Part shown: positions 9,821 to 41,302 of the stretch, piece after piece
Layout of the letters: each line of letters starts with the position of its first letter
Numbering within the stretch: position 1 is the first letter of the stretch
From: Rhodobiaceae bacterium
GTDB taxonomy: Bacteria > Pseudomonadota > Alphaproteobacteria > Rhizobiales > NORP267
Direction of reading: 5' to 3'
NCBI GenBank assembly: GCA_020441905.1
Contig: JAGRLG010000029.1
Span: 16,922 to 80,921, forward strand
Length of the DNA: 64,000 bases
The notes under the pieces: model-generated
Seen by the model: only the letters and a program-made list of their open reading frames with translations
The model's database searches: none
Told to the model about the DNA's origin: nothing
Made by a program: the position numbers and the translations under genes

Positions 9821-10131
9821 AGGACGGCTGCGGGGGAACGGGGCGACGACAAGACCGCCGGTAGCCGGGCCGTCCGGGCGCGGCCGGCCGCCAATTTCGC
9901 CGCAGCGCCGGCAAGGCCATTGACCGTTTCGATTTCGTTCATAATCTCCTGACCCGCCGGGGGATCTCGAAGATCCTGTAACCGGCGACCCCGCGCCGTC
10001 CCGGGCATGGCGGAGCGGGCCGGGTCGCCCCGCTGATCGGAGACAAGATCTTGCACAATCGGACTCAAGGCCGGGACGCCGCTACCGCGTCAGCCATCCC
10101 TGCGTCGCCACGCCCGCAGCCGCGCCGCCCC

Positions 10132-11418
10132 ATGATCTGGTTCGAGGTCGACGACGTCGTTCGCTATTTTCTGACTGCCCGCCAGCCCACCGGCATCCAG
10201 CGCGTCGTCAGTGAAATCCTCGCGGCCGGAATCGGCGAGGCCGGTGAATTGCGCGGCCGCTTCGCCCTGTGCCGCTTCCGCGCCAGCAATGGCCGCCTCG
10301 AACCCATCCCGGCGGCCGAATTCGCCCGCATTTCAGCCGGGGCAAGGCGCGCGCTGCGCACCGGCAGCCGCGCCAGCGCCTGGCAGCGCGCCCATGCCCT
10401 GCTGCACCACGGCGTCTTTGTCGCCGCCAACGTTCTCCGCGCCCGCCTTCGCGATCTGTTCGCCAGCCGCGGCCGCGACCGCGCATTCGCCCGCCTCGTC
10501 CAGCCCGGCGATATTCTGGTCAGCCTGGGCGCCACCTGGGGCCACCGCAATTTCGCCGAACGGCTGAAAGAGGCCAAGACCCGCTACGGGCTGCGCTACG
10601 CCATGATGGTTCACGACATCATTCCCGCCTCGAACCCGGAATTGTGTTCGCCCGCCCATGTCGCCAATTTTACCGGGTGGCTGGCGGCCACGGCGCGCGA
10701 AACAGACCTCTTCTTCACCCCCTCTAAATTCAGCGCCGCCACCCTGAGTGCCTATTCCAGGGCGAAGGGCTGGCCCGGCAAGCCGGTGTTTCCGGTTCGC
10801 TTCGGCACTGGATTTCGCAGCCAGCCCGCCGGCCCCACGCCGCTACGGCTCGAAATCACCGAGCCTTTCGTACTCAAGGTATCGACCATTGAGATCCGCA
10901 AGAACCACCGCCTGCTTGTCGATGTCTGGCGCCGGCTCATCGAGCGCCATGGCAAGGACGCGGTGCCCCCGCTCGTGCTTGTCGGCCGCGTCGGCTGGCA
11001 GGTGGACGACGTGATGAAGGATCTTGCGGCCAGCGACTACCTGGGCGGCAAGGTCATCATTTTCTCTTCGGTTTCCGACGAGATGCTGGCCGCCTATTAC
11101 CGCGCCTGCCTGTTCACGGTCTTTCCCAGCATGGCCGAGGGCTGGGGGCTGCCGGTGGAGGAGTCCTTCGCCCATGGCAAATACTGCATCTGTTCCAGCG
11201 CCAGTTCGGTGCCAGAGGTCGGCGGCGATTTCGCCGACTATTTCGACCCCGCCGATTTCGGCCAGGCCTATGACCTGATCGAGCGCGCCATTTTCGAGCC
11301 CGGCTTCGTCAAATCCCGCGAGGAACGGCTGCGCGCCGGTTTCAAGCCGGAAAAATGGGCCGACACCTTCCGCTCCATCGTCGCCATTCTCGATACCGAA
11401 CTGGCGCGCAAGGACTAG
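10132..11418 (+). CDS. Glycosyltransferase, GT-B fold (family 1/4)
   Basis: C-terminal 'FPSMAEGWGLPVEESFAHGKYCICSSASSVPEVGGDFADYFDP' is the GT1/GT4 EX7E region. I chose the start at ATG 10132 ('MIWFEVDDV'); the track ORF begins at an upstream TTG (10051). Confidence 0.8.
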   Translation: MIWFEVDDVVRYFLTARQPTGIQRVVSEILAAGIGEAGELRGRFALCRFRASNGRLEPIPAAEFARISAGARRALRTGSRASAWQRAHALLHHGVFVAANVLRARLRDLFASRGRDRAFARLVQPGDILVSLGATWGHRNFAERLKEAKTRYGLRYAMMVHDIIPASNPELCSPAHVANFTGWLAATARETDLFFTPSKFSAATLSAYSRAKGWPGKPVFPVRFGTGFRSQPAGPTPLRLEITEPFVLKVSTIEIRKNHRLLVDVWRRLIERHGKDAVPPLVLVGRVGWQVDDVMKDLAASDYLGGKVIIFSSVSDEMLAAYYRACLFTVFPSMAEGWGLPVEESFAHGKYCICSSASSVPEVGGDFADYFDPADFGQAYDLIERAIFEPGFVKSREERLRAGFKPEKWADTFRSIVAILDTELARKD

Positions 11419-11420
11419 GC

Positions 11421-12728
11421 TCAGGCGAAACCGACCGACCGCATCGGCACACCGACGACGCCAAAGCCCACCGGGCTGCGGGCAACCCGGACATGCACCG
11501 CATTCTCCATCCAGTGCAGATGGATATGATCGGCCTGGGTGCCCTCGATGATCGAGGGCGCGAGGTAATAGTCGCCCGCGGGCAGATAGGGGAACTGAAA
11601 GCGGAACCTGGCGGCGAAGCGCTCGCCCGCCGCCATGGCCGGCGGATTTGAATAGGTCGAAAGGAAGGAATTGTCGCCGAACAGGTTCTGGCCGAAGGCA
11701 TCGCGGAACATGAAACCGATGATCGGACGGCGCACTTCCCGGCTGGCCTCGCAGGTGATCCACAGCTCAACCTCCTCGCCGCCTTCGAGCCGCTCGATGA
11801 CGCGCCCGTCCGGCGTGCGGTACCCGGCGTCGATCACCCGGGCGCCGCCATGGCCATGCCATGGCGCGTCGGGGCGGAACGGGCTGACGGTGATTTCGGA
11901 TTTCCCAGCCCAGCGCGGGTCGCGAAAGCTTTGCGGCACTGGCAAGGCCCTGGCCGCGGCGCGGGCCGCCGCCCGGTCGGTGATCGGCGCGTCCCCCAGC
12001 CCCGCCATGGCCAGCTGGTAGACCTCGTTGACTTCCTCGCTCGGCCCCTCCGCCCGCACCGCGCCATGGTCGAGCCAGATCGAGCGCTCGCACACCGAAA
12101 GCACCGCCAGCGAGGAGTGGGAGACGAACAGCAGGGCACCGCCGGCCTCGCGAAACTGGCGCATCCGCGCCATGCACTTGCGCTGGAAGGCGGCGTCGCC
12201 GACGGCGAGAATTTCATCGACCACGAGCAGATCGGCATCGACATGCGTGGCAACGGCGAAAGCGAGGCGGGCGAACATGCCGGAGGAATATTCCCGCACC
12301 GGGCGGTCGAAATAGTCGCCGATGCCGGCAAAGTCGGCGATTGCCGGCAGCCGCGCCTGGATTTCCTTTTCCTTCAGCCCGTGCACGGCCGCATTCATCA
12401 CCGCGTTTTCGCGCCCCGTGAAATCGGGGCTGAACCCGGCCCCCAGCTCCAGCAGCCCGGCGACCCGGCCATTGACGTCGACATAGCCCGAATTCGGCTT
12501 CACCGTGCGGCACAGGATCTGCAGCAGGGTCGACTTGCCCGACCCGTTGCGGCCGATGACTCCCACCGCCTCGCCGCGCGAAACCGAAATGTTCATCGGC
12601 TCCAGCGCCCAGAAGCGCTCGCCGTGGCTGGTTCCCAGAATGAGGTTGGCGGCGTGTTGCGGGATCGAGCAGCCGCGGTAATAGAACTTGCCGATCGCGG
12701 TTCCGGTTATGAGCGGCCGGCTGCTCAT
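11421..12728 (-). CDS. Polysaccharide/glycolipid ABC exporter ATP-binding protein, Wzt-like paralog 2, with C-terminal substrate-binding-type domain
   Basis: Walker A 'GRNGSGKSTLLQ', signature 'YSSGMFARLAF', Walker B 'LLVVDEILAVGD'. The C-terminal extension of about 190 aa is beta-rich, as in Wzt_C. The ATG at 12728 overlaps the upstream stop (ATGA). Confidence 0.85.
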   Translation of the reverse strand: MSSRPLITGTAIGKFYYRGCSIPQHAANLILGTSHGERFWALEPMNISVSRGEAVGVIGRNGSGKSTLLQILCRTVKPNSGYVDVNGRVAGLLELGAGFSPDFTGRENAVMNAAVHGLKEKEIQARLPAIADFAGIGDYFDRPVREYSSGMFARLAFAVATHVDADLLVVDEILAVGDAAFQRKCMARMRQFREAGGALLFVSHSSLAVLSVCERSIWLDHGAVRAEGPSEEVNEVYQLAMAGLGDAPITDRAAARAAARALPVPQSFRDPRWAGKSEITVSPFRPDAPWHGHGGARVIDAGYRTPDGRVIERLEGGEEVELWITCEASREVRRPIIGFMFRDAFGQNLFGDNSFLSTYSNPPAMAAGERFAARFRFQFPYLPAGDYYLAPSIIEGTQADHIHLHWMENAVHVRVARSPVGFGVVGVPMRSVGFA

Positions 12729-14038
12729 GATACCGCCGCGCCCAGCCGCTGGACGGAAACTTCGCGCATGGCGATATTCGCCAGCCCATAGGAGATATGC
12801 GCCGTCGATACCGTCAGGACAAAGGGTTTGGGCGCCCGCGCCACCAGCGCGTCCCCGTCCCCGCCCTGCTCCAGCAGCAACGCCTCGACGACATAGTCGT
12901 TGGAGGGCAGGAACGGCAGGGTGAAGACGAACCGCGCATCGCGCTCTTCGCCGGCCGCCATTGCCGCCGGCGCTTCGTCGCCGCCGGGCGTACGGTCGCC
13001 AAACAGCACTTGCGCGAACTTGTCGCGCACCAGGAAACACACTGAGGGCCGCGTCAGCGCCCGCGCGGCGCGGCAGGTGATACGGATTTCCACCTCCTGG
13101 CCGCCATGGGCCGGCGCCATCGGCCGCCCCTGGCCATCGACCACCTTTATGGCGGCAATCTCGCCGCCGCCGGACGGCGCCGCGAAACCGTCCGGATCGA
13201 AGCGGCCCGGCGCCGGCGCCAGCAGGTCGGCGCGGCGCAGGCAGCCGTCCACCGGGCCCTCGTCGTCATCGATGCCGCCAATGGAGAAGCTGTCGCCGTC
13301 ACCCGCCAGTTTCGACATCGCGGCATGATAGAGACGGCAGACGCGGGGCGTGCGCCCCTCGGCCTCGATGCGGCCCTGGTCGAGCCAGATCGCCCGGTTG
13401 CACAGCGCCCGCACCGCCGAATCGTCGTGGGAAACGAACAGCAGCGTACCGCCGCGTTCGCAAAAGCGGCGCAGATAGCGCAGGCACTTCTGCTGGAACG
13501 CCATGTCGCCGACGGCGAGGATCTCGTCCACCACCAGAATGTCGGTGTCGACATGGATGGCCACCGAGAAGGCCAGGCGGGCGAACATGCCGGAGGAATA
13601 TTCGCGGATCGGCTGGTCGATGAAGCTGCCGATGCCGGCAAAAGCCTCGATGGCCGCCATGCGCTCTTCGAATTGATGGTCCGAAAGCCCAAGAATGGTG
13701 GCGGCGAAACGGGCATTCTCGCGCCCCGTGAAATCAGGATGAAATCCCGCGCCCAGTTCCAGCAGGGCCGCCACCCGCCCGTGAACCTGAACGCTGCCGC
13801 AACTTGCCGCCAGGGTGCCGCAGATCAATTGCAGCAGGGTCGATTTTCCCGAGCCGTTGCGCCCGACGATACCGACCGCTTCGCCGCGCCGGATTTCTAT
13901 ATCGACGTCGCGCAGTGCCCATTTCGGCTCGCCGCGCCGGGTGCCGAAGAACAGGTCGGCGACGCGGTCCGCCTCGTTCTCGTAGCGGCCATAGGCCTTG
14001 CCGAGGCCGCGCGTCGATATGAGGACGTCAGACGACAT
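12725..14038 (-). CDS. Polysaccharide/glycolipid ABC exporter ATP-binding protein, Wzt-like paralog 1, with C-terminal substrate-binding-type domain
   Basis: Walker A 'GRNGSGKSTLLQ', 'YSSGMFARLAF', 'ILVVDEILAVGD'. Its C-terminal domain of about 190 aa is clearly diverged from that of paralog 2. The ATG at 14038 overlaps the end of wzm; the track ORF starts at TTG 14044. Confidence 0.85.
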   Translation of the reverse strand: MSSDVLISTRGLGKAYGRYENEADRVADLFFGTRRGEPKWALRDVDIEIRRGEAVGIVGRNGSGKSTLLQLICGTLAASCGSVQVHGRVAALLELGAGFHPDFTGRENARFAATILGLSDHQFEERMAAIEAFAGIGSFIDQPIREYSSGMFARLAFSVAIHVDTDILVVDEILAVGDMAFQQKCLRYLRRFCERGGTLLFVSHDDSAVRALCNRAIWLDQGRIEAEGRTPRVCRLYHAAMSKLAGDGDSFSIGGIDDDEGPVDGCLRRADLLAPAPGRFDPDGFAAPSGGGEIAAIKVVDGQGRPMAPAHGGQEVEIRITCRAARALTRPSVCFLVRDKFAQVLFGDRTPGGDEAPAAMAAGEERDARFVFTLPFLPSNDYVVEALLLEQGGDGDALVARAPKPFVLTVSTAHISYGLANIAMREVSVQRLGAAVS

Positions 14039-14894
14039 CGGCAAATCCGGGCCTCAGGCGCATGAAGATGCCATGGCCGGCAGCCGCCCACAGCCATCCC
14101 GCCGCCAGATAGACCGCCATCCCGGCAAGGCCCGGCCAGTCGCCGAAAAACAGCGCGTTGCGCATCGACTCCAGGGGAAAGGTCAGCGGGTTGAACATCA
14201 GCACGGCGCGAAGCCCTTCCGGCACCGCCGACAGCGGATAGAACACCGGGCTCAGGAACATGAACAGCATCGTCACCAGCCCGATGAGATGGGCGATGTC
14301 GCGGATGAACACGGAAACCGCGCTGAGGATCCAGGCAAAGCCGAGGGTGAACAGGGCAAGGCCGAAAAACAGCACCGGATAGGTGATGACCGCCAGCGGC
14401 GGCAGGCCGACGATCGGCAGGTAGAAGACGGCAAGAATGGCAAGCCCGATGCCGAAACGGAAAATCGCCGATCCGACGATGGCGAAAGCGAAGATCTCGA
14501 CAGGAAAGAAGATCTTCTTGATGAAGGCCTGGTTTTCGCGCATCAGCGTCGGCGCCCGCGCTACCGAGTCGAAGAAGAAGTTGAAGACGATCAGCCCGGA
14601 AAAATAGATCACCGGAAACAGGAATGGCTCGTCGGTGCGGTCCTGCCAGCGCGAATTGAGAATGACGCCGAAGACAAAGGTATAGATGGCGAGCATGAAG
14701 AGCGGCGCGATCACCGCCCACACCTTGCCCAGCACGGTGCCGCGAAACCGCGATTCGATGTCGCGCTGCACGAGCCGGCGGATGAGGTCGTGATTGCGCA
14801 TCGCGATCGTGTAGGGCGCCGCGACAAAACCCAGCAGGCTGAATTCGCGGCGCGGCGGCACGATTGCACGCGATTCACTGGTCGATTTGTTCAA
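14028..14894 (-). CDS. ABC-2 type exporter permease (Wzm/KpsM/TagG family)
   Basis: 288 aa. 'LVQRDIESRFRGTVLGKVWAVIAPLFML' is the ABC-2 N-terminal signature, followed by six hydrophobic helices. The TTG start at 14894 overlaps the AOS stop by 20 nt; an alternative ATG lies at 14801. Confidence 0.85.
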   Translation of the reverse strand: MNKSTSESRAIVPPRREFSLLGFVAAPYTIAMRNHDLIRRLVQRDIESRFRGTVLGKVWAVIAPLFMLAIYTFVFGVILNSRWQDRTDEPFLFPVIYFSGLIVFNFFFDSVARAPTLMRENQAFIKKIFFPVEIFAFAIVGSAIFRFGIGLAILAVFYLPIVGLPPLAVITYPVLFFGLALFTLGFAWILSAVSVFIRDIAHLIGLVTMLFMFLSPVFYPLSAVPEGLRAVLMFNPLTFPLESMRNALFFGDWPGLAGMAVYLAAGWLWAAAGHGIFMRLRPGFADVV

Positions 14895-16225
14895 GGCAGT
14901 TCCCGATGGCGTTGATGGTGCGGCGAATATCGTCTTCGCTATGGGTGCTGGAGATGAAGAACCGGAGCCGGGCCTTGTTTTCCGGCACCGCCGGATAGCC
15001 GATCGGCAGCGCCAGGAAGCCTTGTCCCAGCAGGGCTTTCGACAGGCGCACCGCCCGGTCCGTGGCCCCGGTCATGATCGGGATGACGGCACTGTCGCGG
15101 CTGGCCCCGGTATCTAGGCCCCGCGCCTTGGCCAGATCCAGGAACAGGCGCGCCCGCGCCTTGAGGCACGCCACCCGCTGCGGCTCCGCTTCCAGCACGC
15201 CAAGGGCGGCCAGCGCCGCCGCCGTGTCCGGCGGCGAAAGCCCGACCGAGTAGACGAAACCGGGGGCGGTCCGCTTCAGATAGGCCACCACCTCGCGCGT
15301 GCCGGCGATATAGCCGCCGCAACTGGCCAGTGCCTTGCTCAAGGTGCCCATCCACAGATCGACATCGCTTCCCGCGACGCCGTGATATTCGCCTATTCCG
15401 CGCCCCGTGCCGCCCAGCACGCCGATCGAATGGGCTTCGTCGACCAACACCAGGGCGTTGTGCCGGCGCTTGATTTCGACCAGGCGCGGCAGGTCGGGAA
15501 TATCGCCGTCCATCGAATAGACACCCTCGACCGCGATCAACGCCTGACGATACGCGCCGCGGCGGCGGGCAAGGATATTCTCCAGCGCCGCCAGGTTGTT
15601 ATGGGGGAACGGCAGCACCGTGGCGCCGGAAAGCTTCGCCCCCTGCTGGATGCTGGCATGGATCAGCGAGTCATAGACGATCAGGTCTTCAGGGCCGAGC
15701 AGATGGCCGATGGCGTTCTCGTTGGTCGAAAAGCCGCCGACAAAGACAACCGCGTCCTCGGCGCCGACCAGCGCCGCGAGCCGGCCTTCAAGCTGGCGAT
15801 GGATCGGCCGCTCGCCCGAGACCAGGCGCGAGGCCGAAACCGAGGTGCCGTAGCGCTCGATGGCCGCGCTGGCCGCGCGCGAAACCTCGTCATGGCCCGA
15901 CAGGCCGAGATAATTGTAGCTGCAGAAATTGACCAGCTCGCGCCCCGACACCATGGCCCGGCTGGCATTCACCCCCTCGCAGAGCTGAAAGAACAGATCG
16001 GCGGCGCCGCCGTCGTCGCTATCCTCGAAGGCGCGGGCGAACCCGGCATATTCGGCCGGAAAGACGAAACCGCCGCGCCCCGCCGCGCGCGCCTCCGCGC
16101 CCGCCGCCAAGGCCGCCCCGGCATTGGGCGCCGCCCCGGCACTGGGCGCCGCCTTTTCGCGCAGCATCTCCTCCAGCAGGGCCCTTTTCTGCGCCGCAGA
16201 CAGGGCCGCGATCCTGTCCGCCCCC

Positions 16226-16233
<8 letters not shown>
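14875..16233 (-). CDS. Alpha-oxoamine synthase (PLP-dependent acyl-(ACP/CoA) : amino acid C-acyltransferase, SPT/BioF/KBL family)
   Basis: 452 aa from ATG 16233. 'VDEAHSIGVLGGTGRGIGE' and the PLP-lysine motif 'GTLSKALASCGGYIAG' are present. There is an N-terminal extension of about 90 aa with the helix 'LSAAQKRALLEEMLREK'. The start overlaps the PKS stop by 8 nt. Confidence 0.85.
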
Positions 16234-23995
<7,762 letters not shown>

Positions 23996-24119: not shown

Positions 24120-25331
24120 TCACTTCGCCAGCAGTTGGCGATAGGTCAGCAGGTGCCGAGCCGTAACCTCGGGCCATGACAGGCCGGGCACGGCGGCGCG
24201 GCATCCTTCGGCGAGCCGGCGCCGCAAGTCCGGCTCGCGGCCATAGCGCGCCAGGGCGGCGGCGAAGGCCCGGTCGCCGTCCGCCAGCAGGCAATCCGCG
24301 CCCTCGGTGAGAAAGTCGCGCAACCCCGCCTCGCGCATGCCCAGAACCGGCACCCCGGCGCAGCGCGCCTCCAGCGCCGCGATGCCGAAGGATTCCAGCC
24401 GCGAGGGCAATAGGAAAAGGTCGGCGCGGGAGAGGGCGGCGCGGATTTCCTCGCGCCCGAGCCGGCCGAGGAACTCTGCGTCCGGTCCAAGGCCAAGCCT
24501 GCCCGCCTGTCTTTCCAGCGCGGCGCGCAGCGGCCCCTCGCCGATGATGCGCAGGCGCAGCCTCTGGCCCTGCGGCAGTTCCCGGCGGGCCTGGGCCACG
24601 GCTCGCAGCAGGGCCTGGGGCCGCTTGCGCGGATGAAGACGCATCACTGCCAGCAGCTCGATCGCCCCTTCTCCGCCGGCCCCGGCCCCGCCGGCATCGT
24701 TGCCCGCCCGCATGGCCCGCGCCGCGCCCCACCAGTCGGCATCGATGCCGTTGGGCAGGATTTCGACCGGTGCCGCGCCCAGCAGAGGGCGCAGCGAGCG
24801 GGCAACGACGCTGCTCACGGCGCTGTGGCGCACCGGCCAGCGGGCGCAGCCGAGCATCCGCCCCAGCGCCGCCGCCAGCGGAATCTGGACATGGCCGATC
24901 ATGGAGTGGAAGGTCGTCAGCACCGGCAGCCCCAGCCGCACCGCTTCGCGCGTCGCCGCATAGGCGAGCGGCGCATTGCCGAAGTGAACATGGACCAGAT
25001 CATAGCGGCCGGCGCGCAACTGCTCGCGCAGGCGCGCGTGAGCCGATTTCCGGTGCGGGCTGGCGAAGCACTCGAGAAAGAAGAAGAGATCGCGCGCGCT
25101 GTTGGCGTGCGGCGGCGGCGGGAAGCGGTAGCCGCCATCGGCGCGCCCCGCCGCGCACAGCCGCCGCACCACCACCCCTTCCACCTCGCCGGGGCCGGGC
25201 ACCGGCGTCAGCACTTCAAGATCCACGCCTTCCGCTTTGAGGTGCACGGTCAGGTCGCGCAGATGCAGCTCGATGCCGCCAAAGCGGGGCAGGTACCAGT
25301 CCGATACCAGGGCAACGCGCGGCGCCGTCAT
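24120..25331 (-). CDS. Glycosyltransferase family 4 (GT-B; PimB/MshA-like N-terminus)
   Basis: 403 aa. N-terminus 'VALVSDWYLPRFGGIELHLRDL' and C-terminus 'LLPSRLESFGIAALEARCAGVPVLGMREAG' (EX7E region). It ends 124 nt upstream of the PKS start. Confidence 0.8.
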   Translation of the reverse strand: MTAPRVALVSDWYLPRFGGIELHLRDLTVHLKAEGVDLEVLTPVPGPGEVEGVVVRRLCAAGRADGGYRFPPPPHANSARDLFFFLECFASPHRKSAHARLREQLRAGRYDLVHVHFGNAPLAYAATREAVRLGLPVLTTFHSMIGHVQIPLAAALGRMLGCARWPVRHSAVSSVVARSLRPLLGAAPVEILPNGIDADWWGAARAMRAGNDAGGAGAGGEGAIELLAVMRLHPRKRPQALLRAVAQARRELPQGQRLRLRIIGEGPLRAALERQAGRLGLGPDAEFLGRLGREEIRAALSRADLFLLPSRLESFGIAALEARCAGVPVLGMREAGLRDFLTEGADCLLADGDRAFAAALARYGREPDLRRRLAEGCRAAVPGLSWPEVTARHLLTYRQLLAK

Positions 25332-25361: not shown

Positions 25362-26333
25362 CTACCACCAGTCGGCAAAGGCATGGATCGCCACCCGGTC
25401 ATTATGGCCCGAAGCGTTGAGGCCGAAGGTCAGCGCCGCCAGCCTGGAGGTGTGCCGCGGGATCGGCAGGCCCGGCGCCGGCACCACCAGCCGCGGCACC
25501 TTGCGCCGCGCCAGATGCGCCGCCACCCACACATCGTCCACCCAGCGCACCTCGTCCGGCCAGCCGGCGTAATCATGCACCCCCTTGTCCAGCGCGCCGG
25601 GCGGGATCAGGTAGCCCCAGACGCCGAGCAGGATGTCGACCTCGGTGGGCTGCGCCACCGCGCTGCCCCAGACATGCTCGAAATGGCGCGGATCGACGCC
25701 CGGCTCCAGGCGCCAGCCGCGCCAGCCCAGGGCAGCCGCCGGAAAGCTGCGATGCGCCTCGACCAGGGTTTGCAGGAAGTCGTGCGGGTAGATCATGTCG
25801 TCATCGACCGCCACCACCAGCGCCTCCGGTTCGGCGAGAAGCGCCGGCAGCAGCTTGGTCGAGGGGCCGGTGTCGACGCAGCGCAGGATGTCGATGCCCT
25901 TGGGCAGGTCCGCCGGCAGCGCATAGGGCTTGCCGCTGCGCAGCGACTTTTCCGGCAGCGCCAAAATGATGCGGTCGGCGGCGCGGGTCTGTTCCCTGAG
26001 GCTGAGCAGGGTTGGAACCAGGGTGTCGATGCGCTCCGGGATCGTGGTCATCGAGACCACCAGGCGCTCGCCGCCGCGCCCGGCCTGGGGCAGCGCCAGG
26101 GAACGCCCCGCGCGCAGCCGCGCCGCGCGGCGATAATCGGCGGCGATGCGCAGGGCCGACAGCCGCCGGAAGCGGATAAACTGGCTGCGGATCTTGCGCC
26201 AGGCGATATCCCGCCGCGTCAATGCCCGGACTGCACCGCTATCCGCCGTCACGCCGCCTGGCCCCGCCCGCCGATCCCCACCCGCCGATTCATGTCGCCG
26301 ATCCCTCTGGTAAGAGGGCGCAAATGTGGACAA
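25362..26333 (-). CDS. Putative GT-A-fold glycosyltransferase (DDD motif)
   Basis: 323 aa. 'VVSMTTIPERIDTLVPTLLSLREQT' followed by 'VVAVDDDMIYPHDFL' looks like a nucleotide-sugar binding fold plus a DxD motif. A basic amphipathic N-terminus is present. Family assignment is tentative. Confidence 0.5.
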   Translation of the reverse strand: MSTFAPSYQRDRRHESAGGDRRAGPGGVTADSGAVRALTRRDIAWRKIRSQFIRFRRLSALRIAADYRRAARLRAGRSLALPQAGRGGERLVVSMTTIPERIDTLVPTLLSLREQTRAADRIILALPEKSLRSGKPYALPADLPKGIDILRCVDTGPSTKLLPALLAEPEALVVAVDDDMIYPHDFLQTLVEAHRSFPAAALGWRGWRLEPGVDPRHFEHVWGSAVAQPTEVDILLGVWGYLIPPGALDKGVHDYAGWPDEVRWVDDVWVAAHLARRKVPRLVVPAPGLPIPRHTSRLAALTFGLNASGHNDRVAIHAFADWW

Positions 26334-26405
26334 TATGTCGGGCGGCGTCTAGACCCGATGGCCGCGCTAAGCGCAGTCACCCTTGGTGAGTGGGGCACCC
26401 AGATC

Positions 26406-27020
26406 ATGGCCGACCTAGCCGGGCCGGAAACCTTGCGCAACCTCTACCGCCGCCTTCTCGACTCGGCGTCGCGCACCCTTGCCGCCGCCGGCATCCACCC
26501 CGACTGGCTGACCATGGCCTCGCTGCCACCGGCGGTCCTTGCCGGCATCGCCGCCGCCTTCGGCTCGTTCACGATCGCCGCCGTCCTGTTCGCCATCAGC
26601 GGCATCCTCGACCTGCTCGACGGCGCGCTGGCCCGCCACACCGGCCGCGCCACCCGTTTCGGCGCGCTGCTCGATTCAACTCTCGACCGCCTTGCCGATG
26701 CTGCCGTGCCCGCCGGCCTCGTCGTCTTTTATGCGCCGCATGGTGCGCTGGCCGCCCTTCCCGTGCTGACCATCATCGCCGGCTTCCTGATTTCCTATAT
26801 CCGCGCCCGCGCCGAAGGCCTCGACATCGCCCTGCCCCGGCTGTGGATGCGCCGCGAGGACCGTTTCCTGGCGATGACCGCCGGCTTGCTTCTGGCCCCG
26901 CTCGCCGCACCGGCCCTCGGCGTTCCGGCGCCCGTGCTGCTCGCGGTGATGGCCGCCCTTGCCGGACTGGGGTTTGTCGCCGCCTTCCAGGCCCTGCGCG
27001 CCGCGGCGAAGCGCAGCTGA
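26406..27020 (+). CDS. CDP-alcohol phosphatidyltransferase (candidate phosphatidylinositol-phosphate synthase)
   Basis: Signature D-x2-D-G-x2-A-R-x8-G-x3-D-x3-D is readable as 'DLLDGALARHTGRATRFGALLDSTLDRLAD'. About 204 aa with multiple TM helices. An alternative ATG lies at 26358. MIPS and PgpA are its neighbours. Confidence 0.8.
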   Translation: MADLAGPETLRNLYRRLLDSASRTLAAAGIHPDWLTMASLPPAVLAGIAAAFGSFTIAAVLFAISGILDLLDGALARHTGRATRFGALLDSTLDRLADAAVPAGLVVFYAPHGALAALPVLTIIAGFLISYIRARAEGLDIALPRLWMRREDRFLAMTAGLLLAPLAAPALGVPAPVLLAVMAALAGLGFVAAFQALRAAAKRS

Positions 27021-27029
27021 GCGCGGCAG

Positions 27030-27557
27030 CTAGAAAGCCAGCGCCGCTAGATGCAGCGCGGCTATGGCATAGAGCGCCGCCAGGCCGTCATCCAGCATGA
27101 CGCCAAGGCCGCCGCCGACCCTGCGGTCGGCCAGCGAAACCGGCCATGGCTTGAGAATATCGAAGGCGCGAAAGAAGACGAAGGCCAGCGCCGATGCGCC
27201 AAGGCCCGGCAGGGCCGGCGGCGCCAGCACCACCACCAGCGCCATGCCGAAGATCTCGTCGATGACAATGGCGCCGTGGTCATGCACCCCCAGCGCCGCG
27301 CCGGCGCGCGACGCCGCCGCCACGCCGATGGCAAAGACCAGTGCCAGGGCGGGCAATGCCGCGGCCAGCGGCAATTGCGCCAGCGCCAGACCGAGCGCGA
27401 GGCCCGGCAGCGAACCGGCCGTTCCCGGCGCCAGCGGGCTGAGGCCGGTGCCGAGGCCGAGAGCGAGGAAATGCCACGGGCTGTCGATGAGGAAGCGCCA
27501 GCCGGGGCGCGCGCCCAAGATGGCTGCCTTTTCAGCGGGCGGGGAAACGGGTTTCAC
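27030..27557 (-). CDS. pgpA: Phosphatidylglycerophosphatase A family protein (candidate PIP phosphatase)
   Basis: 175 aa. 'WHFLALGLGTGLSPLAPGTAGSL' and 'IVIDEIFGM', 'FRAFDILKPWP' are the PgpA signatures. The GTG start lies 6 nt after the MIPS stop. Confidence 0.8.
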   Translation of the reverse strand: MKPVSPPAEKAAILGARPGWRFLIDSPWHFLALGLGTGLSPLAPGTAGSLPGLALGLALAQLPLAAALPALALVFAIGVAAASRAGAALGVHDHGAIVIDEIFGMALVVVLAPPALPGLGASALAFVFFRAFDILKPWPVSLADRRVGGGLGVMLDDGLAALYAIAALHLAALAF

Positions 27558-27563
27558 GCCGCC

Positions 27564-28646
27564 TCAATGGGTCACGAGGTCGTCGACGAATTCGCGGGTG
27601 CGCCGCTGCGCCTCGTGGTCGTCATACTGCACCGGCGGCGACTTCATGAAATAGCTCGACGGGCCTTCGAGGGCGCCGCCGATGCCGCGGTCGAGCGCCA
27701 GCCGCGCGCAACGGATGGCATCGATCACCACGCCGGCGGAATTGGGCGAGTCCCAGACCTCCAGCTTCATCTCCAGGTTGATCTGCGAGCCGCCGAATCC
27801 GGTGCCTTCGAGGCGGATCTGCGCCCATTTGCGGTCCTCCAGCCAGGGCACGTAGTCGCTGGGGCCGACATGGATGTTTCTTTCCTCGAGCGGAAAATCG
27901 ACCTGGCTGGTCACCGCCCGCGTCTTGGAGATCTTCTTCGACTTCAGGCGGTCGCGCTCCAGCATGTTGTGGAAATCCGAATTGCCGCCGAAATTGAGCT
28001 GGTAGGTGCGGTCGAGGCGGATGCCGCGCTGGCCCAGCAGCTGCGCCAGCACCCGATGCACAATGGTGGCGCCGACCTGGCTCTTGATGTCGTCGCCGAT
28101 GATCGGCAGGCCCGTCGCGGCAAAGCGCCCGGCCCAGGCCGGATCGGAGGCGATGAACACCGGAATGCAGTTGACCACGGCGCAGCCGGCCTTGAGCGCC
28201 TCCTCGACATAGAAGCGGGTCGCCGCTTCCGAGCCGACGGGCAGGTAGTTGATCAGGATCTCGGTGCCGGTGGCCTTGAGCACGTCGGTGACATCCACCG
28301 GCGGCGCCTCGGATTCCGGCACCATGTCCTTGAGATATTCGCCGATGCCATCCAGCGTCGGCCCTCGCAGCACCTTGACGCCGGTCTTTTCCACCTCGGC
28401 GAAGCTGCATGTATTGTTGGGGTCGGCGAAAATGGCCTCGGCGAGGTCGCGATCGACTTTGCCGGCATTGACATCGAAAGCCGAGCAGATCTCGACATCG
28501 CGCACGTGATAGCCGCCGAGCGAGACGTTCATCAGCCCCGGCGGCGGCGTATTGGCGTCGGCCTGGTCGTAGAACTTTATGCCCTGAACCAGCGACGAGG
28601 CGCAGTTTCCGACACCAACAATGCCAACTCGAATCTTGTCCGTCAC
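27564..28646 (-). CDS. ino1: myo-Inositol-1-phosphate synthase (inositol-3-phosphate synthase)
   Basis: '[22 protein letters not shown]', 'LPVGSE', '[11 protein letters not shown]', '[12 protein letters not shown]' and 'SKKISKT' match the bacterial/archaeal MIPS family of about 360 aa. I chose GTG 28646 (GGGGG SD 6 nt upstream); the track ORF starts at TTG 28664. Confidence 0.9.
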
Positions 28647-28825
28647 CGAAAGCCCCCATCGCAAGCAGTTTCAGGCTCAAAAGCCCATAGCAGTCATCTT
28701 CGCCAAGTTCCAGTGGCAGCGGCGCCGATGCCGCGGAAAGACCCCTTGCCGGCAACGGCGATCATTGTCTTGGCGCCGGATTGCCGCTAGGCCTTTTGCG
28801 ATCAGGAAGGAAACGAGCCAGCACC

Positions 28826-29884
28826 ATGCGCGCGCCCGCACCGATGCCCGATTGCCCTCGCCCGCCCGCCGCGCGCGCGCGCGCCGATGCCGGATGGCGC
28901 CGCGTTCCGCTGCGCCGGCTTCTCCTCGTCCTTGTCGCCATGGCCATCATTGCCGCCCTGCCCTTCGTGGACTGGGCAGGGCTGGGTATGGCGCTCGCCG
29001 CCGCCGATCCCTATTGGCTGGCCATGGCCGTCATTGCCAATCTTGCCGTTTTCCCGCTCTGGGTCTGGCAATGGCGGCTCCTGGCGCTGCCGGGGCGTGA
29101 CGTCGGCTGGCCGGTCATGGCCGAGATTGTCGCCCTGACGGCTGCCGCCAAGACCACCCTGTCCTCGATCGGCGGCGGCGCCTCGGCGGTGGCCCTACTG
29201 GTGGCGCGCGGCGAACTGACACTGATCGGCGCCACCTCATTGCTCGCCATGGACCAGCTTCTGGTCGGCATTGCCAAGCTGGCCGTCCTCGCCCTGGCGC
29301 TCTCCATTGCCCCGCTCCCCGCCCCCGTCTTCACCGCGGCGCTGGTCTTCGCCGCGCTGGTGGCCGCGTTGCTGGCCGCCCTCACCGTCCTTGCCTTCGG
29401 CCCGGCGCGGCTCGCCGGCATTGTGGCGCGCCGGCGCAGGCTTGGCGCCTGGCTTGGCAACATGCTGGGTCATGTTTCCGTCGGGCTTGCCACCATGCGC
29501 AGTCCGCAACGCGCCGCCCTGACCCTGGCGCTCGCGCTGGTCAAAAAATTCACCGAGGTCGCCGCCGCCCTTGCCATCCAGCTTGCCTGCGGCATCGCGC
29601 CTTCGCCCGCCGCCGCCATCCTGTCGGTGGCCGCCGTGAGCCTGACGACGGCGATACCGGTCATTCCCGGCAATATCGGCACCTATGCCGCCACCGTGTT
29701 TCTGGTCTACGAAGGCCTCGGCATCCCCGCCGCGCCGGCGCTGGCCGCCGGCCTGCTTCAGCACGGCGCCATGCTCATCCCCTCGCTCGCCATCGGCTAT
29801 GGCGCCGTGGCATTGTCGCGCCTTGGCGCAGGCGGCGCGGCGGCCGGCGAGGCGGCGCAAGAAACGGAGCAGGATCCGGCATGA
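28826..29884 (+). CDS. UPF0104 / lysyl-PG-synthase-TM-region family membrane protein (flippase-like)
   Basis: About 352 aa and polytopic. N-terminus 'RRLLLVLVAMAIIAALPFVDW..L..AL...DP.WLA.AV..NL' with 8 or more hydrophobic helices, typical of the MprF flippase-domain family. Its stop overlaps the lptB-like start (ATGA). Confidence 0.6.
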   Translation: MRAPAPMPDCPRPPAARARADAGWRRVPLRRLLLVLVAMAIIAALPFVDWAGLGMALAAADPYWLAMAVIANLAVFPLWVWQWRLLALPGRDVGWPVMAEIVALTAAAKTTLSSIGGGASAVALLVARGELTLIGATSLLAMDQLLVGIAKLAVLALALSIAPLPAPVFTAALVFAALVAALLAALTVLAFGPARLAGIVARRRRLGAWLGNMLGHVSVGLATMRSPQRAALTLALALVKKFTEVAAALAIQLACGIAPSPAAAILSVAAVSLTTAIPVIPGNIGTYAATVFLVYEGLGIPAAPALAAGLLQHGAMLIPSLAIGYGAVALSRLGAGGAAAGEAAQETEQDPA

Positions 29885-30663
29885 CCGCATCAGGGGCACC
29901 AGACGCGAAAATGCTCCAGGCCTCGGGCCTGGCCAAGGCCTATGGCGGCGGCGATGTCGTGGTCGATTTCAGCCTTCGCGTCGCGCGCGGCGAAACCGTC
30001 GCCCTGCTTGGCCCCAACGGCGCCGGCAAGACCACCGTTTTCAGCATGATAACCGGCGTCACGCGCCCCGATGCCGGCGCGGTGCGCATCGACGGCATCG
30101 ATGTCACCAAGATGCCGGTCTATGCCCGCGCCCGCCTCGGCCTCAGCTATCTGCCGCAGGAAACCTCGGTTTTCCGCGGCCTGTCGGTGGAGGACAATAT
30201 CCTGCTCTATCTCGAAAGCATCGAGCCGGATCGCCGCCGCCGCGCCCGCCGCCTGGAAGAACTGCTGGCCGAGGTCGGCCTCGCCGACATGCGCCGCCAG
30301 AGGGCCTCGCGCCTGTCCGGCGGCCAGCGGCGGCGCTGCGAAATCGCCCGCGCCCTCGCCGCCGACCCGCGCTACATCCTGCTTGACGAGCCTTTCGCCG
30401 GCATCGACCCTCTAGCCGTGAGCCACGTCCAGGCCACCATCCGCGACCTCAGCGCGCGCGGCCTCGGCGTTCTTGTCAGCGATCACAATGTGCGCGAGAC
30501 GCTGGCCATCGTCGACCGCGCCTATGTCATCGAATCGGGATACCTGCTGGCCCATGGCACGCCGGGCGAGATCATCGGCGACGAACAGGTGCGCCGCCTC
30601 TATCTCGGCAGCACCTTCGCCGCGCCGCCTTCGGGGGCCGCGCCGCCCGGCCCCACGGCCTGA
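29881..30663 (+). CDS. lptB: LptB-family ABC ATPase (paralog embedded in the lipid island)
   Basis: 'LLGPNGAGKTT.F.MI.G', 'LGLSYLPQE.S.FR.LSVEDN', 'LSGGQRRRCEIARALA..P.YILLDEPFAGIDP' and 'DHNVRETL' are LptB hallmarks. 260 aa. Confidence 0.8.
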   Translation: MTASGAPDAKMLQASGLAKAYGGGDVVVDFSLRVARGETVALLGPNGAGKTTVFSMITGVTRPDAGAVRIDGIDVTKMPVYARARLGLSYLPQETSVFRGLSVEDNILLYLESIEPDRRRRARRLEELLAEVGLADMRRQRASRLSGGQRRRCEIARALAADPRYILLDEPFAGIDPLAVSHVQATIRDLSARGLGVLVSDHNVRETLAIVDRAYVIESGYLLAHGTPGEIIGDEQVRRLYLGSTFAAPPSGAAPPGPTA

Positions 30664-30781
30664 ACGCGGTCCCGACGGGAACGAAACAGGGGAAACAGCC
30701 ATCGCCTCCTTCCAGACACTGCATGCCGGCGCGGCGCGCCGTCACCCTCCCGCCGGCATCCCGCGGCGGCCGGGGCGTGCC

Positions 30782-31945
30782 GTGCCGGGGCGCTATGTCG
30801 GCGGCCTCATCCGCGACATCGCCCGCATCACGCTTGGTGTCCTGGCCGGCATCGAGGCGATCTATCTTTCCGACAAGGTGATCACCCACCTCCTGCCGAC
30901 CACCCTCCAGAACCAGGCCGGATTTGCCGATCTGGCGCTGCTGGTGCTCTACGCGACGCCGGAAATCCTATTCATCGGCTTTCCGGTGGCGCTGCTGATC
31001 GCGGTCTATCTGGTTCTGCTGCGCCGCCGCGAGGCCAATGAGTTCGTCGTCTTCGCCGGTGTCGGCTACGGCACCGGCGCGCTGCTCGCCCTGGTCCTGG
31101 TCATCGGCCTCGCCGGCCAGGCGCTTTCCCTGGCTGCCACCGGCTATATCGAACCCCACGCCCTGCACCTGTTCGGCAAGACGGCGTTCGAAACCCGCTA
31201 CAAGGCGCTGCGTGAAGGCCGCCTCGCCGCCGGCAAGTTCTATGTCTTCGACAAATATGCCGTCTTCGCCCCCTATCGGCGCGGCAATGACGTGGTCGAC
31301 AACCTGTTCATCCATGCCCGCCTCGACGCCAACCGCTACCGCATCATGATCGCGGACCGCGCCACCTTGTTCGGCTCGCCGGAAATCCGCAATCTGGGGC
31401 TGATATTCGAGAATGCGTCGGTCCATGAATTCCACGAGAACCGCACCCTGGACCCCGGCCCAGCCGAATGTCAGAAATGCCGCAACGCCCGTCCGGCGGC
31501 CCCCTTCAACGTTCTCAGGATCAATCACCTCTACGGCGAGCTGCCCGCCGGCGACGGGCAGGAATTCGGCCCGCGCGGCCAGCGCCCGGCGGAACTGACC
31601 AGCCTCGAACTGCTGACCGGGCAAGACACCGGCGGCGGCGCCACGCGGGAAATGTCGGCTCGCGCCGTGCGCGCCCTCACCTGCCTGCTGGCGCCCCTTA
31701 TCGCCCTGCTGGCAGTGGCGCTGACCAGCCAGGCCACCATGTTCATTGCCCTGCCCGCCGCCTGCGCGCTGATCCTCGGCACCGGATTTTTCGGCGGCCA
31801 GGCCGCCGGCCTGCTGCCCCCCGCCGGCATGGCGGCCAATCTTGGCGCGGTGCTGGTGCTGGGGCTTGCCGCCGCCGCGGCCCTCATTTGGGCCGTGCTG
31901 CGCGTCCAGAACGGCTGCGTGCGCCCGCACGGGGTGCGGCTATGA
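30782..31945 (+). CDS. lptF: LptF-like (YjgP/YjgQ family) permease
   Basis: The in-frame GTG at 30782 gives 'MPGRYVGGLIRDIARITLGVLAG...', the family-typical N-terminal RY motif. This is followed by 3 TM helices, a periplasmic domain of about 170 aa and 3 C-terminal TM helices. Its stop overlaps the next start (ATGA). Confidence 0.7.
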   Translation: MPGRYVGGLIRDIARITLGVLAGIEAIYLSDKVITHLLPTTLQNQAGFADLALLVLYATPEILFIGFPVALLIAVYLVLLRRREANEFVVFAGVGYGTGALLALVLVIGLAGQALSLAATGYIEPHALHLFGKTAFETRYKALREGRLAAGKFYVFDKYAVFAPYRRGNDVVDNLFIHARLDANRYRIMIADRATLFGSPEIRNLGLIFENASVHEFHENRTLDPGPAECQKCRNARPAAPFNVLRINHLYGELPAGDGQEFGPRGQRPAELTSLELLTGQDTGGGATREMSARAVRALTCLLAPLIALLAVALTSQATMFIALPAACALILGTGFFGGQAAGLLPPAGMAANLGAVLVLGLAAAAALIWAVLRVQNGCVRPHGVRL

Positions 31946-33120: not shown

Positions 33121-33524
33121 AATTCTGCCGTCAGCTCTATTTCCGCCTCGCCCATCACCACGGTCTTGCCGGCGGCGGCCGCGGTCAGCCGCACCACCGC
33201 CCGGCGGGACGCCGGATCGGCCGCGACCACCCGCCCCGAAATCTCCACGCCCTCGCCGAAAAGGACCGGGCGCAGGAAGCGCGCCGCCAGGCGGGCGATG
33301 GCGCCGCAGCGCGGCCAGGCCTCCAGCGCGCGGGAAAACTGCCCCATCACCAGCATGCCGGGAACCGGCAGGCCGGCCATGCCGGCGCCGCGCGCCAGGG
33401 TTTCGTCGCGGTGCAGCGGATTGTCGTCGCCCGAGGCCGCCAGATAGGCGCCGACCGCATCGGCGCCGATGGCTTCGATGGCAAGCCCCGGCAGGCGCTG
33501 GCCGATCAGTTCCTGGCGGCTCAT
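33117..33524 (-). CDS. MaoC-like (R)-specific hydratase/dehydratase, catalytic hot-dog subunit (HadB-like)
   Basis: 135 aa. Hydratase-2 motif 'YLAASGDDNPLHRDETLA' ([YF]-x-x-[STG]-G-D-x-N-P-[LIV]-H). The start overlaps the upstream stop by 4 nt. Confidence 0.75.
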   Translation of the reverse strand: MSRQELIGQRLPGLAIEAIGADAVGAYLAASGDDNPLHRDETLARGAGMAGLPVPGMLVMGQFSRALEAWPRCGAIARLAARFLRPVLFGEGVEISGRVVAADPASRRAVVRLTAAAAGKTVVMGEAEIELTAEF

Positions 33525-33943
33525 GGGCGCGGCTCCTTGCCGCCGGCGAGAACGAAGCTGCCGCACACGCTGGCGACCCTGGCCCCGGCGCCATCGCGCA
33601 GATCGGCCCTCACCCGCGCCACCCCCCTGGCATCCGGCCCGGCAAGGCCGACATCCATGGCATAGGGCTGGCCGATGCGCAGGGGCGCGAAATATTCCAT
33701 TTCCTGGTCGAGATGCACCGGCACCTTGCCGCCGCCGCCCAGCGCCACCAGCAGCGCCGATTTGACCGCCGGCTCCGCCAGCCAGCAGATCGGAAAGGTG
33801 ACCGGCACTTCGCCCCGGCCAGCGCCGCCAGCCCCGCCCAATGCCAGCGCGGCGCGAAAGCGGGCCACCCGCTCCGCCCCGGCCACGACATCGAAACTGC
33901 CGATGCGGCGAAATCCTGGCGCGGGCGCGGCGGGCGTCGCCAT
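33521..33943 (-). CDS. Hot-dog fold protein without hydratase motif (MaoC N-terminal-like, HadA/HadC-like partner)
   Basis: 140 aa from ATG 33943 ('MATPAAPAPGFRRIGSFDVV...'). It has no D-x-N-P-x-H motif. It sits directly between the KAS gene and the catalytic hot-dog gene. Confidence 0.55.
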   Translation of the reverse strand: MATPAAPAPGFRRIGSFDVVAGAERVARFRAALALGGAGGAGRGEVPVTFPICWLAEPAVKSALLVALGGGGKVPVHLDQEMEYFAPLRIGQPYAMDVGLAGPDARGVARVRADLRDGAGARVASVCGSFVLAGGKEPRP

Positions 33944-33948
33944 GCCCG

Positions 33949-35157: not shown

Positions 35158-35170
35158 CGGGAGGATGTCC

Positions 35171-41290: not shown

Positions 41291-41302
41291 GCCGCTGGCG
41301 TT

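Follow-up and report, generated by a model that had tools for sequence, protein, structure and literature searches.

In a 64,000-nucleotide stretch of DNA from a Rhodobiaceae bacterium (GenBank assembly GCA_020441905.1, contig JAGRLG010000029.1, positions 16,922 to 80,921; referred to here as the window), five consecutive genes on the minus strand, spanning positions 23995 to 11421, encode a polyketide synthase (PKS), an alpha-oxoamine synthase (AOS), the ABC-2 membrane protein Wzm and two Wzt ATPases, Wzt1 and Wzt2, that carry different carbohydrate-binding modules (CBMs). We conclude that Wzm, Wzt1 and Wzt2 represent a recurrent, previously undescribed exporter architecture, which departs from known Wzm/Wzt systems in its two Wzt proteins with two CBMs and in its genomic setting. 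No account of a dual-Wzt arrangement was met in a literature search for paired wzt genes or Wzt paralogues, and recent papers on sphingolipid transport leave Wzm/Wzt unmentioned. As the possible substrate we favour, tentatively, a glycan built on the inositol-phospho-sphingolipid that the same locus would produce.

Both Wzt proteins (437 and 435 aa) are intact, and they are paralogues, as had been proposed in an initial annotation of this DNA. Aligned with each other, they are 45% identical overall, 57% identical in the nucleotide-binding domain (NBD; residues 1-240) and 32% identical in the C-terminal domain, in agreement with the earlier description of similar NBDs joined to clearly diverged CBMs. 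The Walker A motif, Q-loop, YSSGM signature, Walker B motif, D-loop and H-loop are intact and occupy identical positions in the two proteins. In Pfam, Wzm matched ABC2_membrane (PF01061; 92.5 bits, residues 38-249), while Wzt1 matched ABC_tran (68.7 bits) and Wzt_C (PF14524; 53.9 bits) and Wzt2 matched ABC_tran (66.7 bits) and Wzt_C (99.1 bits), the cut-off for Wzt_C being 30.4 bits. The AlphaFold models of Wzt1 and Wzt2 had a mean pLDDT of 85.5 and 90.3, respectively, and the top PDB fold matches of both were full-length WzmWzt chains of A. aeolicus (8dne, 7k2t and 8dku), with alignments over ~410-435 columns, i.e. over the NBD and the carbohydrate-binding domain (CBD) together. Both C-terminal domains match a Wzt_C-like fold by Pfam as well as by predicted structure, which bears out the type of domain that had been assigned to them. 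Moreover, the best PDB sequence matches of the Wzt NBDs were A. aeolicus Wzt, followed by TarH and TagH. All criteria of sequence and predicted fold place the exporter firmly in the Wzm/Wzt family; it differs from the family in the number of wzt genes, of which two are adjacent here and conserved in position in other lineages in place of a single one.

The five genes are chained by overlapping starts and stops. Reading the junctions from the sequence gave the same overlaps as in the initial annotation, i.e. 8 nt for PKS/AOS, 20 nt for AOS/Wzm, 11 nt for Wzm/Wzt1 and 4 nt (ATGA) for Wzt1/Wzt2. The sole debatable point of this chain is the start of Wzm. In automatic gene calls on identical metagenome contigs, Wzm was called once as a protein of 288 aa and three times as a protein of 277 aa, the latter starting at GTG 14861, 13 nt past the AOS stop. 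The TTG at 14894 has a Shine-Dalgarno-like GGGAA 6 nt upstream. Because a TTG at the same place and an upstream GGGGGAA are conserved in two related loci (L001 and L002, in which the overlap with AOS is 14 nt), we prefer the TTG, as had been called initially. For Wzt1, a TTG at 14044 is another possible start; yet the homologues start with MSS-, matching the ATG. In a promoter and terminator scan of 9.8-29 kb, predicted sites were no more numerous than in shuffled sequence.

We mapped the proteins of the window onto related loci by tblastn. A nine-gene block encoding a CDP-OH transferase, the unassigned protein unk25, the glycosyltransferase GT4b, PKS, AOS, Wzm, Wzt1, Wzt2 and the glycosyltransferase GT4a lies in the same order in L001 and L002, with 42-71% amino acid identity to the window by tblastn, and the overlapping junctions are kept. 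Judged by this synteny in two other genomes, the gene arrangement exceeds chance. L001 (JBFWQA010000001.1; synteny with the window at 43-71%) is labelled as a metagenome-assembled genome of Flavobacteriaceae and has 65% G+C over the fetched 21 kb; this label is probably a binning or naming error. Compared by position with L001 and L002, orthologues are 58% identical for Wzt1 and 60-63% identical for Wzt2, whereas the paralogues are 45% identical. In the NBD and in the CBM alike, orthologues are thus closer to each other than paralogues are, and therefore the wzt duplication is older than these lineages; by this measure, the pairing of Wzt1 and Wzt2 is old and maintained.

At least 11 other loci have the Wzm-WztA-WztB module, usually with a convergent GT4 gene behind it, and among distant Wzt homologues (~50% identical) every context that was looked up was either a Wzm-Wzt-Wzt module or a fused form. 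The convergent GT4 gene lies at the GT4a position in L001, L002, L088-L091, L096 and L100, and full-length homologues of GT4a lie elsewhere in the locus in L092 (39%) and L095 (42%). In L094, the module is disrupted by insertion sequence elements. In L099, a third open reading frame (ORF) of 337 aa with a Wzt_C domain only (11708-12721) lies downstream of the Wzt pair. A 452-aa variant of Wzt2 in L082 that lacked Pfam matches was discarded as the product of a scaffold gap (a run of N). The Wzt1 protein was identical on 11 metagenome contigs, and a metagenome scan based on Wzm returned only three identical copies of the window sequence and no new relatives. A genome scan based on AOS returned mostly cyanobacterial, planctomycete and myxobacterial AOS without Wzm/Wzt, and only L001 and L002 were syntenic. 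Finally, in a plasmid reference set, 174 records had a Wzt match (178 matches), and at most four of these records held more than one.

Six tandem loci were used to compare the C-terminal domains by gene position. The domain of the second-position Wzt (CBM-B) is 46-67% identical among these loci, the Wzt2 domain of the window falling in this same range against the second-position Wzt of the five others. By contrast, the domain of the first-position Wzt (CBM-A) is 29-42% identical between lineages, and CBM-A and CBM-B are 24-33% identical to each other. On these identities, CBM-B is an orthologous group and CBM-A varies. The tight CBM-B family is small, with 24 clusters at E <= 1e-30 among 1.84 billion representatives.

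Two further patterns bear on why a single Wzm is accompanied by two CBMs. In 21 homologues of ~620 aa, a Wzt1-like NBD is fused to a CBM-A-like domain and to a CBM-B with 44-58% identity to that of Wzt2. Such proteins (P0004, P0021, P0023 and 18 others) have two tandem Wzt_C domains on a single Wzt. In L092 and L093, the gene for the fused Wzt adjoins one for a methyltransferase of 536-549 aa, and L092 also has a myo-inositol-1-phosphate synthase (MIPS), a PF04488 glycosyltransferase and a PKS. Moreover, between the tandem wzt genes of L089 (10001-12644), DNA identity is 97-100% for the first ~720 nt, then 68% and then 41%; identity falls abruptly at the boundary between NBD and CBM, and the CBMs stay ~32% identical. 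The tandem wzt genes of L088 (10001-12650) have a similar pattern, with 77-89% DNA identity in the NBD part. The pattern in L089 is that of gene conversion confined to the ATPase domain, and by these alignments the NBDs are interchangeable, and even homogenised, while two different CBMs are kept. The fusions and the NBD-limited gene conversion therefore show that the selected feature is the presence of two different recognition domains on one Wzm.

We considered whether the two Wzt proteins act together. The canonical ATP sites in Wzt1 and in Wzt2 fit a heterodimer and two homodimeric complexes on one Wzm equally. Because translation of the two genes would be coupled through the ATGA overlap and because the fusion proteins exist, we consider it slightly more likely that the two CBM types act within a single complex.

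CBM-B-like domains that are 41-50% identical are also present in the single Wzt of Azospirillum and Nitratireductor. We therefore rejected the idea that CBM-B is specific to sphingolipid loci. Because CBM-B-like domains serve single-Wzt O-antigen clusters, CBM-B probably reads a common feature of a glycan, perhaps a methylated terminal sugar, and not a lipid. Thus, the part of the initial annotation that predicted two differing recognition modules is upheld by the fusions and by L089, and the part in which these modules serve a (glyco)lipid as such is revised; the CBM points to a capped glycan.

The setting of the exporter was examined in the related loci. Sphingolipid or inositol-lipid genes lie within 10 kb in 10 of the 11 other two-Wzt or fused-Wzt loci. 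The exporter thus accompanies such lipid genes in other Alphaproteobacteria as well; the bins of L096, L099 and L092 are labelled Pararhodobacter, Rhizomicrobium and Stellaceae, respectively. In L090/L091, L096 and L100, the module stands beside genes for a PAP2_3 enzyme, a GNAT-like protein, an acyl carrier protein (ACP), a ketosynthase (KS), MaoC, two LptF/G and LptB, with LPG_synthase_TM in addition in L096 and L100; these neighbours correspond to the block to the right of the module in the window, and no PKS or AOS gene lies between. In L095, the module lies beside MIPS, a CDP-OH transferase and PgpA as well as homologues of unk25, GT4a and GT4b, and in L099 an AOS or serine palmitoyltransferase (SPT) gene, 45% identical, lies directly upstream of Wzm. 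L088, L089 and L093 encode a glycosyltransferase of GT21, the ceramide-glucosyltransferase family; L088 and L089 also encode a GNAT-like protein and an SDR, and L089 in addition an SPT-like protein and a fatty-acid hydroxylase. L092 contains genes for MIPS, the GT4a homologue and a PKS of 2534 aa. By contrast, the single-Wzt loci of cultured Azospirillum (L097 and L098) are classical O-antigen clusters, L097 with RgpF, L098 with rfbABCD and both with large SAM methyltransferases, and none of the sphingolipid or inositol-lipid genes was found in these two loci. In total, these observations support the link that had been drawn initially between the exporter and a PKS/AOS-derived lipid; moreover, they identify the locus as an inositol-phospho-sphingolipid locus and the two-Wzt module as one that tracks such loci elsewhere.

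In the window, the five overlapping genes are central to an envelope-lipid locus that covers ~32 kb, from about 10.0 to 42.8 kb; its gene map was guided by G+C content at third codon positions, and ORFs were scanned with Pfam and NCBIfam (Table 1). The stretch with the genes for DUF4833, the GMC oxidoreductase and ManC is likely the right-hand edge of the locus. The locus is flanked by nadABC and regulators and, past its ManC end, by a sigma-54 two-component pair and genes for TRAP transport.

Table 1. Genes of the envelope-lipid locus, with positions in the window
Gene or genes	Position	Strand	Product	Support
PKS	16226-23995	-	2589 aa, KS-AT-DH-MT-ER-KR-ACP	Pfam
AOS	14875-16233	-	452 aa, serine-palmitoyltransferase-like	Aminotran_1_2, 178 bits
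Wzm	14028-14894	-	ABC-2 membrane subunit, 288 aa from TTG 14894	ABC2_membrane
Wzt1	12725-14038	-	437 aa, ATPase and variable CBM-A	ABC_tran, Wzt_C
Wzt2	11421-12728	-	435 aa, ATPase and conserved CBM-B	ABC_tran, Wzt_C
GT4a	10051-11418	+	Convergent GT4 glycosyltransferase; gene-caller start ~10132, giving 428 aa	Glycos_transf_1, 62 bits
GT4b	24120-25331	-	GT4 upstream of PKS	Glyco_transf_4 and Glycos_transf_1
unk25	25362-26333	-	323 aa, conserved, family unassigned	No Pfam/NCBIfam match at threshold
CDP-alcohol phosphatidyltransferase	~26358-27020	+		CDP-OH_P_transf (Pfam)
PgpA-like phosphatase	27030-27557	-		PgpA (Pfam)
MIPS	27564-28664	-	myo-Inositol-1-phosphate synthase	Inos-1-P_synth (Pfam)
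LPG_synthase_TM, LptB, two LptF/G	28781-33120	+	'Flippase-like' protein, LptB homologue, two LptF/G-like permeases	Pfam
Ceramide-type genes	33117-38640		MaoC and hotdog-like pair, KS, ACP, unk35, PAP2_3, SDR	Pfam
unk35	35481-36671	-	~396 aa, GNAT-like	Weak GNAT match, E 0.018
PAP2_3 enzyme	36668-37573		Phosphoinositol-dihydroceramide-synthase-like	Pfam PAP2_3
DUF4833, GMC oxidoreductase, ManC	38832-42757		DUF4833 protein, GMC oxidoreductase, GDP-mannose supply	Pfam

From its domains, the PKS is a single-module, fully reducing type I enzyme that would act iteratively, making the long acyl chain of a sphingoid base. The best PDB matches of AOS were the serine palmitoyltransferases 3a2b and 8guh (E 4e-69), with KBL only marginally behind, and its NCBIfam matches were all under the equivalog cut-offs. 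A PKS and AOS pair, SgaAB of Pseudomonas fluorescens MYb115, makes very-long-chain (C24-C28) sphinganines (PMC12134224). The C-terminus of the PKS (...LSDSEVEALLRQMAQEEHGNV; 16226-16290) and the N-terminal extension of AOS (MSEGADRIAALSAAQKRALLEEMLREK...; 16150-16233) resemble matching docking helices; this extension of ~55-80 residues is common to cyanobacterial homologues that adjoin PKS genes.

All four inositol-lipid functions of the Bacteroides type are present by Pfam, i.e. MIPS, the CDP-alcohol phosphatidyltransferase as phosphatidylinositol phosphate (PIP) synthase, the PgpA-like phosphatase and the PAP2_3 enzyme. In Bacteroides, MIPS, PIP synthase, a PgpA-like PIP phosphatase and a PAP2 synthase make phosphoinositol dihydroceramide, and the CDP-OH transferase, PgpA and MIPS of the window correspond to BT_1523, BT_1525 and BT_1526 of that cluster (PMC9246714). 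Against NCBIfam PhinosDhcerSyn, the PAP2_3 enzyme scored 127.6 bits, the equivalog cut-off being 480. Homologues of unk35 adjoin AOS or SPT genes in Pirellulales (L007, L021 and L048), L080, L088 and L089, and are also present in the PAP2_3 block of L090, L096 and L100; on this distribution, unk35 is a candidate bacterial ceramide synthase. For DUF4833 (38832-39578, minus strand), in L080 (Sedimentisphaerales) an AOS gene and a GNAT-like gene lie near a homologue that is 32% identical, a hint that the protein could have a part in sphingolipid metabolism. NCBIfam gave no match for unk25, unk33, unk35 or DUF4833, and the Pfam hints for unk25, unk33 and unk35 are weak.

Concerning the glycosyltransferases, seven of the nine PDB matches of GT4b were GT4 enzymes with inositol-containing acceptors, i.e. 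MshA (3c48, 3c4q and 7qsg), PimB' (3oka and 3okc) and PimA (2gej and 4n9w), with E values from 4e-15 to 5e-12, and the other two were GT4-family entries named 'group 1'. These matches suggest that GT4b probably acts on an inositol-containing acceptor. Similarly, unk25 has a weak match to Glycos_transf_2 (E 0.0095) and a DDD motif, and is possibly a GT-A-fold glycosyltransferase. Its homologues are 56-61% identical in L001 and L002, in both of which it travels with GT4b, and 51% identical in L095; in the window, its start lies ~25 nt from the divergent CDP-OH transferase gene. The stop codons of Wzt2 and of the convergent GT4a are 2 nt apart (11418-11423). In L088-L090 the convergent wzt and GT4 genes overlap by 4-8 nt, leaving therefore no room for terminators.

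As for transport, the LPG_synthase_TM gene is followed by those for the LptB homologue and the two LptF/G-like permeases, with overlapping starts. The LPG_synthase_TM protein contains the flippase-like domain TIGR00374 below threshold, and the LptB-like protein matched solved LptB in the PDB with E 2e-77. A self-contained LptB-F-G set inside a sphingolipid locus may be new; the Caulobacter locus has LptF2 and LptG2 and no LptB.

Together with the recurrence beside lipid genes, this gene content suggests a pathway. PKS and AOS would make a sphingoid base or ceramide, to which the PAP2_3 enzyme would add inositol phosphate from phosphatidylinositol. Glycosylation by GT4b, GT4a and unk25 would take place on the cytoplasmic face, with GDP-mannose supplied through ManC; the acceptor would be the inositol-phospho-sphingolipid of the locus or an inositol phospholipid, and the product a probably mannose-containing lipoglycan resembling a glycosyl inositol phosphoceramide or lipomannan. 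Wzm, Wzt1 and Wzt2 would then translocate the glycan-bearing lipid across the inner membrane, each CBM binding a feature of the glycan (CBM-B one that is conserved, CBM-A one that is specific to the lineage), and the Lpt-like set would carry the lipid on to the outer membrane. Because the locus has a separate flippase-like gene and LptB/F/G for a plain lipid, an arrangement that has been proposed to serve plain phosphosphingolipids in Caulobacter (CC_1166 and LptF2/G2), we tentatively assign Wzm/Wzt to a larger glycoconjugate. In solved full-length WzmWzt such as PDB 7k2t, a top fold match of the Wzt models, the CBD is placed below the NBDs and distant from the membrane, a position that favours a long, end-marked glycan over a head group of two or three sugars. 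KpsMT capsules on lyso-phosphatidylglycerol are a precedent for export of a glycan anchored to a glycolipid, as is the lipid carrier hypothesised for rkp-1. We regard it as quite possible that the dual-CBM exporter translocates a glycan built on the inositol-phospho-sphingolipid of its own locus. A more specific version is somewhat unlikely, i.e. that a polysaccharide is assembled directly on the PKS-derived inositol-phosphoceramide without an undecaprenyl carrier, is checked by the two CBMs of a heterodimeric Wzm2-Wzt1-Wzt2 (one for a conserved feature, one for a cap specific to the lineage), is translocated and is then carried to the outer membrane by the dedicated LptB2FG paralogue.

Several points weigh against export of such a lipoglycan. 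The Wzt1:Wzt2 heterodimer is only a candidate arrangement, the lipoglycan itself is deduced from gene content and genomic association, and the locus encodes only two or three glycosyltransferases. In Azospirillum and Nitratireductor, a CBM-B-like domain belongs to a single-Wzt system, and both Azospirillum loci that were examined are classical O-antigen clusters; a sphingolipid anchor therefore does not follow from the presence of this CBM. A CBM-bearing Wzt is usually accompanied by a chain-terminating methyltransferase or kinase, and no stand-alone enzyme of either kind was found by Pfam in the locus of the window; such enzymes do occur in the related loci L088, L089, L092-L094 and L099, and here GT4a may serve as a capping glycosyltransferase in place of a methyltransferase or kinase. 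Moreover, we know of no exporter of the Wzm/Wzt type with a demonstrated substrate other than a polyprenol-linked one, although KpsMT does act on glycolipid-anchored capsules.

An alternative is ordinary export of O-antigen or capsule, in which the glycan is built on undecaprenyl phosphate after priming by an unlinked WecA-type enzyme and is ligated to lipid A-core or another acceptor; the position in a sphingolipid locus would then reflect co-regulation, and two homodimeric transporters would share Wzm and serve two differently capped glycans. Pfam, PDB sequence matches and fold all mark the two proteins as canonical Wzt, the complete catalytic motifs in both NBDs make homodimers feasible, and classical O-antigen clusters that have one Wzt, rfbABCD and large methyltransferases also contain CBM-B-like domains. 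However, the module is repeatedly accompanied by sphingolipid or inositol-lipid genes, which come in several different orders, Wzm overlaps AOS in the window and adjoins an AOS gene in L099, and the fusion proteins place both CBMs on one NBD. In addition, no Pfam match to an initiating transferase of the WecA/MraY or WbaP type or to the O-antigen ligase WaaL was obtained for any sizeable ORF of the window, and none to an initiating transferase or ligase among the called genes of nine looked-up loci, L001 and L002 having been compared by tblastn only. The absence of WecA and WbaP from the window is as stated in the initial annotation; the argument that was built on it is weak, since classical Wzm/Wzt systems commonly have wecA and waaL elsewhere in the genome, and their absence proves little against an O-antigen. 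On balance, we find an ordinary O-antigen or capsule somewhat unlikely as the substrate.

At the other extreme, the exporter could be a flippase for a small glycosphingolipid, e.g. a mono- or di-mannosyl inositol-phosphoceramide, with the CBMs binding the head group and no polymer being made. The short list of glycosyltransferases (two GT4s and one possible GT-A enzyme) would suit such a product, as would the resemblance of GT4b to PimA and PimB', which make the phosphatidylinositol mannosides PIM1 and PIM2 on the cytoplasmic face; also, the step at which bacterial sphingolipids are flipped across the inner membrane is still to be assigned. A short, membrane-embedded head group would, however, be out of reach of a CBD below the NBDs, a gene for a flippase-like protein is already present beside LptB/F/G, and the related loci encode WbdA-like two-domain GT4s (884-1013 aa) and large methyltransferases that are typical of capped polymers. 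We therefore consider a small-lipid flippase improbable. Finally, the tandem arrangement and the 57% identity of the NBDs could suggest that one of the wzt genes is a redundant recent duplicate without a function of its own. This was rejected as highly improbable because position-specific orthologues are present in distant lineages, neither gene is damaged and neither protein lacks a motif, conservation of CBM-B is strong, the CBMs of L089 escaped the gene conversion that made the NBDs alike, and the fusions retain both CBMs.

The exporter and its locus each have partial counterparts among known systems. The WzmWzt O-antigen exporters of E. coli O9a, K. pneumoniae O12 and A. aeolicus (7k2t and 8dku) have a similar ABC-2 subunit, an NBD with the YSSGM signature and a Wzt_C beta-sandwich. 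These systems use a single Wzt homodimer, whereas the window has a second wzt gene whose product differs in its CBM, and some relatives have two CBMs on one Wzt. Moreover, the module of the window is embedded in a sphingolipid/inositol-lipid locus, with no terminator enzyme, WecA or WaaL in view. The CBD of the O-antigen exporters recognises the modified end of the glycan (PMC9445017).

The Sinorhizobium rkp-1 (rkpA and rkpG-J) and Burkholderia pseudomallei wcb (wcbR, wcbT and wzm2/wzt2) loci likewise combine a type I PKS, an AOS-like gene and a polysaccharide exported by an ABC-2 transporter, the PKS and AOS of the window being likened to RkpA/RkpG and WcbR/WcbT by domain architecture only. 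The rkp and wcb loci have exporters of the KpsM/KpsT type without a CBM, Kdo transferases of the KpsC/S type and KpsD/E; none of the Pfam families of KpsM/T, KpsC/S and KpsD/E was found among the ORFs of the window. The rkp and wcb loci are also not known to contain inositol-lipid genes or a two-Wzt arrangement. These PKS capsule loci with ABC-2 export have been described (PMC4881576, PMC3908369 and PMC10913486), and the rkp-1 products have been proposed to supply the capsule with a lipid carrier of its own (PMC4881576).

Compared by description, SgaAB likewise consists of an adjacent single-module PKS and SPT-like AOS; it is described as a two-gene cluster in a paper whose text nowhere contains 'ABC' (PMC12134224), whereas here the pair runs into an exporter among head-group genes. 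The B. thetaiotaomicron cluster BT_1522-BT_1526 likewise encodes homologues of MIPS, PIP synthase, PIP phosphatase and a PAP2-type synthase; by contrast, the host of the window is alphaproteobacterial, its sphingoid base would come from a PKS and not from SPT with acyl-CoA, and GT4s, Wzm/Wzt and Lpt are added. The sphingolipid locus of Caulobacter encodes LptF2, LptG2, LptC2 and the candidate flippase CC_1166, and the window similarly encodes LptF/G paralogues and a putative flippase, to which it adds its own LptB homologue and the Wzm/Wzt exporter. The analogy with mycobacterial DrrABC, put forward in the initial annotation, did not hold well. DrrABC is also an exporter of the ABC-2 type linked to PKS genes (PMC11539658); however, it combines a single NBD (DrrA) with two different membrane proteins (DrrB and DrrC) and lacks a CBM, as opposed to one membrane gene and two NBD genes with CBMs in the window, and its substrate is a non-glycosylated wax. 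Closer parallels are the rkp and wcb PKS capsule loci, the glycolipid-anchored capsules exported by KpsMT and the LptF2/G2 of sphingolipid loci.

The passage of bacterial sphingolipids and their glycosylated forms through the inner membrane is still to be explained (PMC11324152; bioRxiv 10.64898/2026.04.12.717747). The locus of the window and its relatives provide a testable candidate for this step, in which a Wzm/Wzt exporter is genetically tied to sphingolipid and inositol-lipid synthesis and to LptB/F/G paralogues. The dual CBMs, as present in the two-gene form, in the fused form and after NBD-limited gene conversion, point to combinatorial checking of the substrate in Wzm/Wzt. Export of a glycan on the lipid of the locus would also link the PKS genes of rkp and wcb, long unexplained, to PKS-made lipids as anchors for ABC-exported glycans. 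If the more specific version holds, with assembly directly on the inositol-phosphoceramide, some Alphaproteobacteria would have a sphingolipid-based counterpart of lipopolysaccharide with its own O-antigen-style export route.

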